From Leptospira sp. (lineage in GTDB: Bacteria > Spirochaetota > Leptospiria > Leptospirales > Leptospiraceae): a stretch of DNA of 64,000 nucleotides. The DNA is taken from contig JAWXAQ010000002.1 of the NCBI GenBank assembly GCA_034439575.1, positions 32,001-96,000 of the forward strand, read 5' to 3'. Positions within the stretch are counted from its first letter, which is position 1, and each line of letters begins with the position of its first letter. Of the stretch, positions 117 through 415 are shown one piece after another. Under the pieces are notes generated by a model. That model was not told the origin of the DNA, searched no databases, and was given only the letters and a program-made list of their open reading frames with translations. Made by a program: the position numbers and the translations under genes.

Positions 117-269
117 AATCAGTATTAGTTTGCAAAAAAATTAAAATAAATTCCTGTAAAAAATAAAATTTCTTTACATTAAAATTGATATGAATTAATT
201 ATGTCGTATCAAACTACTTTATCCGCCAAGGAATATGGTAGTTTGAAATTAAAGATAAGGACGATCACA

Positions 270-344
270 ATGGTTGCTAAAAAGAAAGCCGCAAAAAAGA
301 AAGCCGCTAAGAAAAAGGCCGCAAAGAAAAAAGCTAAGAAATAA
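270..344 (+). CDS. 24-aa Lys/Ala-rich histone-H1-like micro-protein (MVAKKKAAKKKAAKKKAAKKKAKK)
   Basis: AAGGA RBS at 257-261, ATG 270, TAA 342-344; repeat units differ only at synonymous third positions; terminator downstream. Confidence 0.8.
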   Translation: MVAKKKAAKKKAAKKKAAKKKAKK

Positions 345-390
345 CCTTAGCAAGTTTCTTCCTCCGATGTTGTCGGAGTAAGATTGTGTG

Positions 391-415
391 AACCCGCAAG
401 ACCTGCGGGTTTTTT
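391..415 (+). terminator. Intrinsic terminator after the micro-protein gene
   Basis: AACCCGCA-agacc-TGCGGGTT stem followed by T-run. Confidence 0.85.

Follow-up and report, generated by a model that had tools for sequence, protein, structure and literature searches.

Positions 173–415 of the window (the whole 64,000-nucleotide stretch of Leptospira sp. DNA that was analysed) appear to constitute an autonomous, monocistronic micro-gene with a transcript of about 210 nt. Its codon signature indicates that it almost certainly encodes a 24-residue Lys/Ala peptide. The micro-gene can be assigned, by sequence comparison, as the saprophyte orthologue of the candidate sRNA locus LIC1nc80/JB_C1_N135. 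The gene is not wholly new: its orthologous transcript has been published as a candidate sRNA, and a 47-aa protein read from a wrong start is in public protein sets. A rough probability of 0.55 is given to the reading that a stable and abundant mRNA from this autonomous unit yields a polycation which would bind nucleic acid non-specifically, with the nucleoid as first choice. The analogy with known Lys/Ala proteins suggests that the peptide probably coats DNA or RNA in the manner of a free-standing histone tail.

Organization of the locus

The positions of the signals and structures are given in Table 1. The promoter ahead of the micro-gene is of the sigma-70 type and is near consensus (consensus scan); transcription is likely to start a few bases past position 202.

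Table 1. Features of the Lys/Ala micro-gene in the window
Feature	Positions	Strand	Basis or remark
Promoter region with A/T-rich upstream stretch	141–205	+	Scan and cross-genus conservation
−35 box TTTACA	173–178	+	Consensus scan
−10 box AATTAT	197–202	+	Consensus scan; inside motif TTAATTATGTC (195–205)
Spurious 5′ ORF extension from ATG 201	201–269	+	Really −10 box and 5′ leader
Leader hairpin TCAAACTACT / GGTAGTTTGA, 5′-proximal, loop GCCAAGG	209–246	+	MFE fold, consensus fold
Shine-Dalgarno (SD) AAGGA	257–261	+	8 nt before ATG 270
24-codon ORF MVAKKKAAKKKAAKKKAAKKKAKK*	270–344	+	ATG 270–272; TAA ends at 344
Hairpin GCTAAG-aaataac-CTTAGC, stop codon in loop	333–351	+	Fold
3′ UTR hairpin CTTcCTCCG / CGGAGtAAG	358–382	+	Includes CTCCGA 362–367 / TCGGAG 373–378
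Intrinsic terminator	390–415	+	9-bp G+C-rich stem 390–412, T410–415

The open reading frame begins ATG GTT GCT and continues as (AAA AAG AAA GCC GCA)(AAA AAG AAA GCC GCT)(AAG AAA AAG GCC GCA)(AAG AAA AAA GCT) AAG AAA TAA. Tandem Repeats Finder detects 3.7 copies of a 15-nt unit at positions 279–334. The predicted peptide has 14 Lys and 8 Ala residues, with a computed mass of 2611 Da (2480 Da without Met) and a computed pI of 11.1. An earlier note on this DNA had described a stand-alone micro-gene with a ribosome binding site, a 24-aa ORF, a 3′ hairpin and a terminator, and repeat units that differ only at third codon positions. Both descriptions can be read directly from the window.

An in-frame ATG at position 201 gives a 47-aa ORF in the ORF reading of the window. 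The true start appears to be ATG 270, because ATG 201 lies within the conserved −10 motif and its frame is stopped early in relatives; by eye, a stop precedes ATG 270 in most species of the same genus and in other genera. The exact 47-aa form is present in public protein sets, including NCBI nr, from which the 24-aa form is absent. The earlier note had held that gene callers miss the gene. This is correct for the true start and the 24-aa form, but the locus was not wholly missed, since the 47-aa form with its wrong start is in nr, and the orthologous transcript has been published.

The flanking genes differ between genera. In the window's genus there is a zinc-type dehydrogenase upstream and a convergent gene downstream, and in g21 and g22 (genera are given here by our own labels) a SpoIIE-type phosphatase lies upstream of the micro-gene. 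The neighbouring genes gave no pointer to a nucleoid function. Directly past the terminator, on the minus strand, is a convergent 193-aa ORF without a Pfam match (positions 434–1015); the next ORF, also on the minus strand (positions 1065–2207), encodes a SUFU-family protein.

Conservation of the unit and of its reading frame

The unit is present in nearly every Leptospiraceae genus searched. A DNA search recovers positions 150–430 over their full length from all 24 of the 24 genomes of the same genus, at 78%–93% identity. DNA matches are found in 101 of 114 Leptospiraceae genomes, e.g. in 40/40 of g1, 22/22 of g21, 24/24 of g22 and 0/8 of g23. Genomes of g23, which have no DNA match, carry the unit in all four tested by a pattern search; by pattern search the unit was not found in one g15 genome. 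Of the 20 loci that were fetched from other genera, 19 have an orthologous ORF between the same promoter and terminator. Locus L077 (genus g12) was discarded as a spurious DNA match, there being no ORF at the locus. Ortholog lengths at the fetched loci are 30 aa (g21 and g22), 29, 36, 24, 25 and 24 aa, and 92 aa in g17. The 92-aa version (locus L076, where the ORF begins at position 1503 of the reverse complement) contains some 12 repeats with KKK and closes with an acidic stretch that is not part of the repeat (...NIRTAPEAEELPAETV); the same promoter precedes it and the same terminator follows it.

When named genomes were scanned for the 20 nt that open the ORF, 80 loci were found, 46 of which carry a Lys/Ala micro-ORF of 18–43 aa. 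All but one of these 46 are from records of Leptospira, Leptospiraceae, Leptospirales or Spirochaetota, the exception being an unclassified MAG. Named records with the micro-ORF include L. interrogans, L. borgpetersenii, L. noguchii, L. weilii, L. fluminis, L. haakeii, L. yanagawae, L. vanthielii, L. idonii and L. ilyithenensis, species which we take to span the pathogenic, intermediate and saprophytic groups. Among the 46 loci the promoter motif is found in 43, the terminator in 44 and the SD in 45. The sequence CTTTACA-N17/18-TAATTATGTC is common to all genera inspected, and the terminator AAACCCGC...GCGGGTTTTTT is kept across genera. The SD is an invariant AAGGA in all 35 same-genus sequences and GGAGG in other genera. 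Leptospiraceae have 18 protein variants of 21–43 aa; all start with MVA(P)KKKA and keep the frame, and the length variants retain MVAKKKA, the SD and the stop. A conserved order of ribosome binding site, ORF and terminator, which the earlier note had proposed to look for in relatives, is thus present.

In a sister family of the same order, longer forms of 59–74 aa are found (loci L026, L027 and L029). These read MAKKK(V/A)AKKK... and have short non-repeat C-terminal ends. Their leader of about 150 nt starts at the same TTATGTC motif as that of the Leptospiraceae unit. The unit is probably spread across the order. The C-terminal tails of the sister-family forms contain Pro and Phe (...GSLPNF, ...SPSPFF and ...LPGFSL) and resemble short linear docking motifs.

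The codon analysis comprised 35 same-genus sequences from 35 of 41 genomes; the ORF is 24 codons long in 33 of them and 26 codons long in two. None of the 35 has a broken frame. The 33 sequences of 24 codons display ten variable columns, nine of them at codon position 3 (binomial P = 3.6e-4; the columns are not independent events). Both this statistic, which sets the upper limit of significance, and that on A runs given below overstate independence because the same-genus sequences are related. The three variable Lys-codon columns have A and G only, and the third positions of the GCN codons take several bases. There is one replacement only, Ala22Ser (GCT to TCT), in 21 of the 33 sequences. In 21 of 21 cases it is paired with a C to A change just past the stop, so that the hairpin GCTAAG...CTTAGC becomes TCTAAG...CTTAGA; the closing pair of this hairpin is G-C in 10 sequences, U-A in 21 and G.U in two.

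AAA makes up 58% of the Lys codons in the micro-ORFs, compared with 82% in genome frames of at least 300 codons. The longest A run is six or shorter in 32 of 35 distinct ORFs, where the expected share is 0.8% with genome codon usage and 14% with the ORFs' own usage. The KKK triplets of the long frames of the genome show the same avoidance, AAAAAAAAA accounting for 11.9% of 411. Long A runs thus appear to be avoided in the micro-ORFs and not exploited.

The earlier note had suggested that selection acts on the peptide. This finds agreement in the nine third-position columns out of ten and in the orthologues of other genera, which keep the frame. The pattern argues that selection acts on the frame at the protein level, and that the conservation of the unit is due neither to chance nor to slippage. 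We infer from the sequence that the ORF is translated and that the peptide would be abundant.

RNA structure and the published transcript

Positions 206–418 fold with an MFE of −63.3 kcal/mol, compared with a mean of −40.1 (sd 4.1) for shuffled sequences (z = −5.6; none of 200 shuffles is as stable). Folded together, the 35 sequences give a consensus of 43 pairs. Compensatory changes are found in the leader hairpin, where pair 11–38 shows six double changes with four pair types, and pairs 18–32 and 19–31 show two each. In the 3′ hairpin, pair 181–194 changes from U-A to C-G in six sequences. The terminator is invariant in the 35 sequences save for the outermost pair, which changes from G.U to A-U. 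CACAAU at the start codon pairs in the folds with AUUGUG at positions 383–388; both sides are invariant, hence there is no covariation signal, and the pairing was set aside.

In other genera the leader sequence is different, and a leader hairpin is predicted again. The last codons are also predicted to pair there with the first bases past the stop. By a crude criterion, i.e. a helix of at least 4 bp closing over the stop, a stop hairpin is present in 32 of 53 distinct contexts, and in all 16 of the 24-codon contexts of the window's genus, with 5–9 bp. The folds suggest that the hairpins may be mRNA-stabilising elements that flank the short frame.

Two side observations on the leader may be added. 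In the MFE folds of positions 203–268 and of the orthologous leaders, the first bases past the −10 box (GUCGU here; GUCC or GUCUC elsewhere) pair at or beside the SD, with ACGAU as partner in the window and GGAC or GAGA in other genera; this predicted pairing would link the 5′ end to the ribosome binding site. The loop GCCAAGG(A) at positions 225–232 is invariant within the genus and repeats the AAGGA of the SD; other genera differ. With one GGA in a loop and another at the SD, the arrangement is reminiscent of CsrA sites. A CsrA two-site leader was considered and dropped because the other genera are without the GGA loop, which is confined to the window's genus. An Rfam search of positions 1–1200 (E-value of 1 or less) gave only an unrelated sub-threshold match at positions 896–1029 on the other strand.

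Putz 2026 (PMC13224635) validated the sRNA JB_C1_N135/LIC1nc80 (JB_C1_N135 being its L. borgpetersenii name) by Northern blot and reports that 42 of 43 pathogenic species have it. Reverse-complemented, the Northern probe maps to the SD region and ends 1 nt before the orthologous ATG. There is one mismatch in L061 (g21), one in L156 (L. borgpetersenii) and two in L084 (L. interrogans), as Putz 2026 states; 200 shuffles of the probe gave no chance match. The window's genus differs in the probed leader segment, and its membership in the LIC1nc80 locus therefore rests on the promoter, the ORF and the terminator.

Caimano 2014 (PMC3953431) describes LIC1nc80 in L. interrogans as a 201-nt region with high transcriptional activity, which is up 4.39-fold in host-adapted cells from dialysis membrane chambers. 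Zhukova 2017 states that serovar Manilae carries LIC1nc80 as an annotated CDS, and names a 92-nucleotide gene, LMANv2_330026, as second in expression after lipL32. LMANv2_330026 could be the Lys/Ala micro-gene or the gene for ribosomal protein bS22 (see below). The sentence in Zhukova 2017 may describe bS22, because the bS22 gene has 93 nt with its stop (30 codons), compared with 78 nt (25 codons) for the L. interrogans orthologue in L084.

In Putz 2026 none of the terms peptide, open reading frame, small protein and lysine occurs. A search of the literature on lysine-rich or small proteins, ribosome profiling and LIC1nc80 in Leptospira found no description of the peptide, and a 2025 preprint on sORFs makes no mention of lysine, histone or LIC1nc80. 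Contigs of three RNA libraries from three studies cover positions 226–397, which indicates presence only, as contigs cannot prove transcription. With the contigs of runs X5, X8 and X11 the rest of positions 1–1100 is uncovered, which says nothing on silent flanks or RNA abundance. Read-mapping shares are small (0.04–0.22), and no inference on habitat is drawn from them.

Possible role of the peptide and comparison with known systems

The 24-aa form has no family in Pfam or NCBIfam, and the 30-aa form is likewise without a Pfam match. The 62-aa and 74-aa orthologues of the sister family match PF07382 (HC2) with E-values of 3.7e-4 and 3.7e-6 (21.1 and 27.6 bits); no form reaches the Pfam gathering cut-off of 40 bits. 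In the ESM Atlas the first match (0.90), which is no more than a lead, is a cluster in which 20% of the members carry HC2. A protein homology search with the 62-aa orthologue gave none at an E-value of 0.001 or less among 155 candidates. Sequences of the type MVAKKKA(A/G)...KKK start HU-fold proteins (PF00216, E = 1e-14 to 1e-16) in Gammaproteobacteria MAGs (L110, L131 and L141). The earlier note had placed the peptide near H1-like Lys/Ala proteins and tails; these are indeed the nearest named resemblances, as seen in the sub-threshold HC2 matches and the HU-protein starts. As regards membership in these families, the peptide lacks the globular winged-helix domain of linker histone H1, its 24 residues of repeat being the tail-like part only, and it is without the HU fold of the tailed HU/IHF forms (PF00216), as the ORF ends at 24 codons and is followed by the terminator. 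All likeness to H1, Hc2 and HU tails is one of composition and may have arisen by convergence.

It should be added that the 20 nt with which the ORF opens are also found at the start of HU-fold proteins with Lys/Ala N-terminal tails in Gammaproteobacteria MAGs (L110, L118, L131 and L141), of Hc2-like proteins of more than 120 aa in Chlamydiae MAGs (L125 and L128), and of a stand-alone repeat protein of 78 aa, made of Lys, Ala, Pro and Arg, in an Acidimicrobiia MAG (L150).

The single HU gene of the genome lies elsewhere, in a 103-aa open frame, and is without a Lys-rich tail. According to Hocher 2023 (PMC10627809), all Leptospirales have a histone that is extremely abundant and enriched in the nucleoid. 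A search of the window's genome (G000) with PF00808 gave no match to the histone fold. The idea of the earlier note that the peptide acts as a tail for the leptospiral histone is without support here, because no histone-fold gene was found in the genome with PF00808. Nucleoid condensation and polyphosphate binding, which the same note proposed, are putative roles.

A scan for small Lys/Arg-rich frames revealed a separate 30-codon gene with a strong SD outside the window (G000:C8:52844–52933; L081:501–590, + strand). The 30-aa protein it encodes is similar to bS22 chains of known structure: 7jil_5 (E = 1.8e-9), Borrelia 8fmw_V (2.9e-7) and 9i5v_10 (1.1e-6). The gene is found in 61 of 61 Leptospiraceae genomes with 90%–100% identity. 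The Lys/Ala peptide is therefore not bS22, since the bS22 slot is filled by this separate gene of the same genome. A phmmer search of the PDB with the Lys/Ala peptide gave no match at an E-value of 10 or less.

The removal of this one candidate narrows the ribosomal alternative of the earlier note. In a more general form, the peptide would be associated with the ribosome or rRNA and belong with the very short polybasic proteins (bS22, bL37, eL41 and bTHX), be it as a lineage-specific ribosomal protein or as a factor for assembly or hibernation. This reading appears rather unlikely. A length of 24–30 aa with 58% Lys is akin to bS22, which PMC10618245 gives as 30 aa with 61% Lys/Arg and unannotated in Borrelia, and the A/T-rich region upstream of the promoter together with the high reported transcription of the orthologue would fit ribosomal-protein-like expression; no Leptospira ribosome structure was found in the literature. 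However, the bS22 position is already taken in every genome searched for it, the PDB search is negative, and the peptide is a pure repeat which varies from 21 to 92 aa with drifting filler, unlike peptides that occupy rRNA pockets. The contrast between the near-invariant bS22 and the drifting repeat argues against a fixed rRNA site for the Lys/Ala peptide.

That the transcript is a regulatory sRNA, acting in trans or as a protein sponge, with the frame incidental or secondary in a dual-function RNA, is improbable, even though the orthologue was published as a Northern-validated, differentially expressed candidate sRNA. The stability of the predicted structure and the covarying hairpins would also suit an sRNA, as would, within the genus, the CsrA-site-like GGA in the leader loop GCCAAGG and in the SD AAGGA. 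But where the A-rich core varies, it does so in step with the codons and without change to the amino acids; the SD, ATG, frame and stop persist from genus to genus and the leader sequence does not; the GGA in the loop is limited to one genus; the structured parts lie in the UTRs, as for mRNA stabilisers; and Rfam has no match to the micro-gene at an E-value of 1 or less. Lys-rich frames can slow ribosomes, and this, with the stop codon placed within a hairpin, is the point in favor of a regulatory leader or translation sensor, which would respond to Lys-tRNA supply or to polylysine stalling and control a downstream gene. Such a leader is highly improbable, as the strong terminator at 390–415 is followed by a convergent gene, the neighbours vary between genera, and long A runs are avoided where a sensor would use them. 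A Lys-sensing leader was dropped from consideration for want of a co-oriented gene downstream.

The reading as an mRNA for a nucleic-acid-binding polycation can be put as a series of proposed steps. The near-consensus sigma-70-type promoter would drive a transcript of about 210 nt, made up of a 5′ hairpin, the SD, the 24-codon ORF, the hairpin enclosing the stop, a second 3′ hairpin and the terminator. This RNA would be translated into MVAKKKAAKKKAAKKKAAKKKAKK, which carries 14 positive charges. Such a low-complexity polycation may be selected for charge and periodicity and not for a fixed fold, and could bind nucleic-acid polyanions non-specifically, as a free counter-ion or as a compaction factor. 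Its target of first choice would be the nucleoid, where it would act much like the Lys/Ala tails of H1, chlamydial Hc2 and tailed HU. The number of repeats and the filler residues (A, V, S, T and P) drift between genera, the pattern expected of a non-specific electrostatic binder, while bS22 stays nearly unchanged.

A bolder form of the proposal is put forward tentatively. In it, a highly abundant transcript of the Leptospirales would supply an oligolysine counter-ion, the peptide would act as a free “histone tail” that compacts the chromosome with the tail-less histone of the order, and the micro-gene would be an accessible example of unannotated polycation micro-genes that occur across phyla.

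If the mRNA reading is true, the peptide may be a major component of leptospiral chromatin or ribosome biology that is invisible to proteomics, its trypsin fragments being too small for identification. A pathogen transcript reported to be host-induced, and carried in the literature as a regulatory sRNA, is read here as a likely mRNA for a polycation of 24–30 residues. Saprophytic Leptospira can be grown and engineered. The genus thus offers a cultivable and genetically tractable host with published transcript evidence for the micro-gene.

Several known systems invite comparison. H1 C-terminal tails, AlgP and BpH1 have Lys/Ala-rich short-period repeats and a high positive charge. Hc2 (PF07382) shares with the Leptospira peptide the short-period Lys/Ala repeats and the extreme positive charge; the Hc2 model, however, has 194 positions and the chlamydial-type relatives exceed 120 aa, whereas the Leptospira peptide is 24 aa of repeat only. 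The tailed HU proteins show the same MVAKKKA start in a DNA-binding context, but there is no HU fold on the Leptospira peptide and the likeness is possibly one of convergent low complexity. bS22 (PDB 7jil and 8fmw), eL41 and bL37 are alike in length, charge and missing annotation; they have no sequence similarity to the Lys/Ala peptide, and bS22 is nearly invariant in the family, in contrast to the variable repeat. The closest system is LIC1nc80/JB_C1_N135, which by orthology is the same locus and has an independent, intergenic transcript of about 200 nt. It differs in having been published as non-coding and as conserved in pathogens, whereas the unit described here is found in nearly all Leptospiraceae genera searched.
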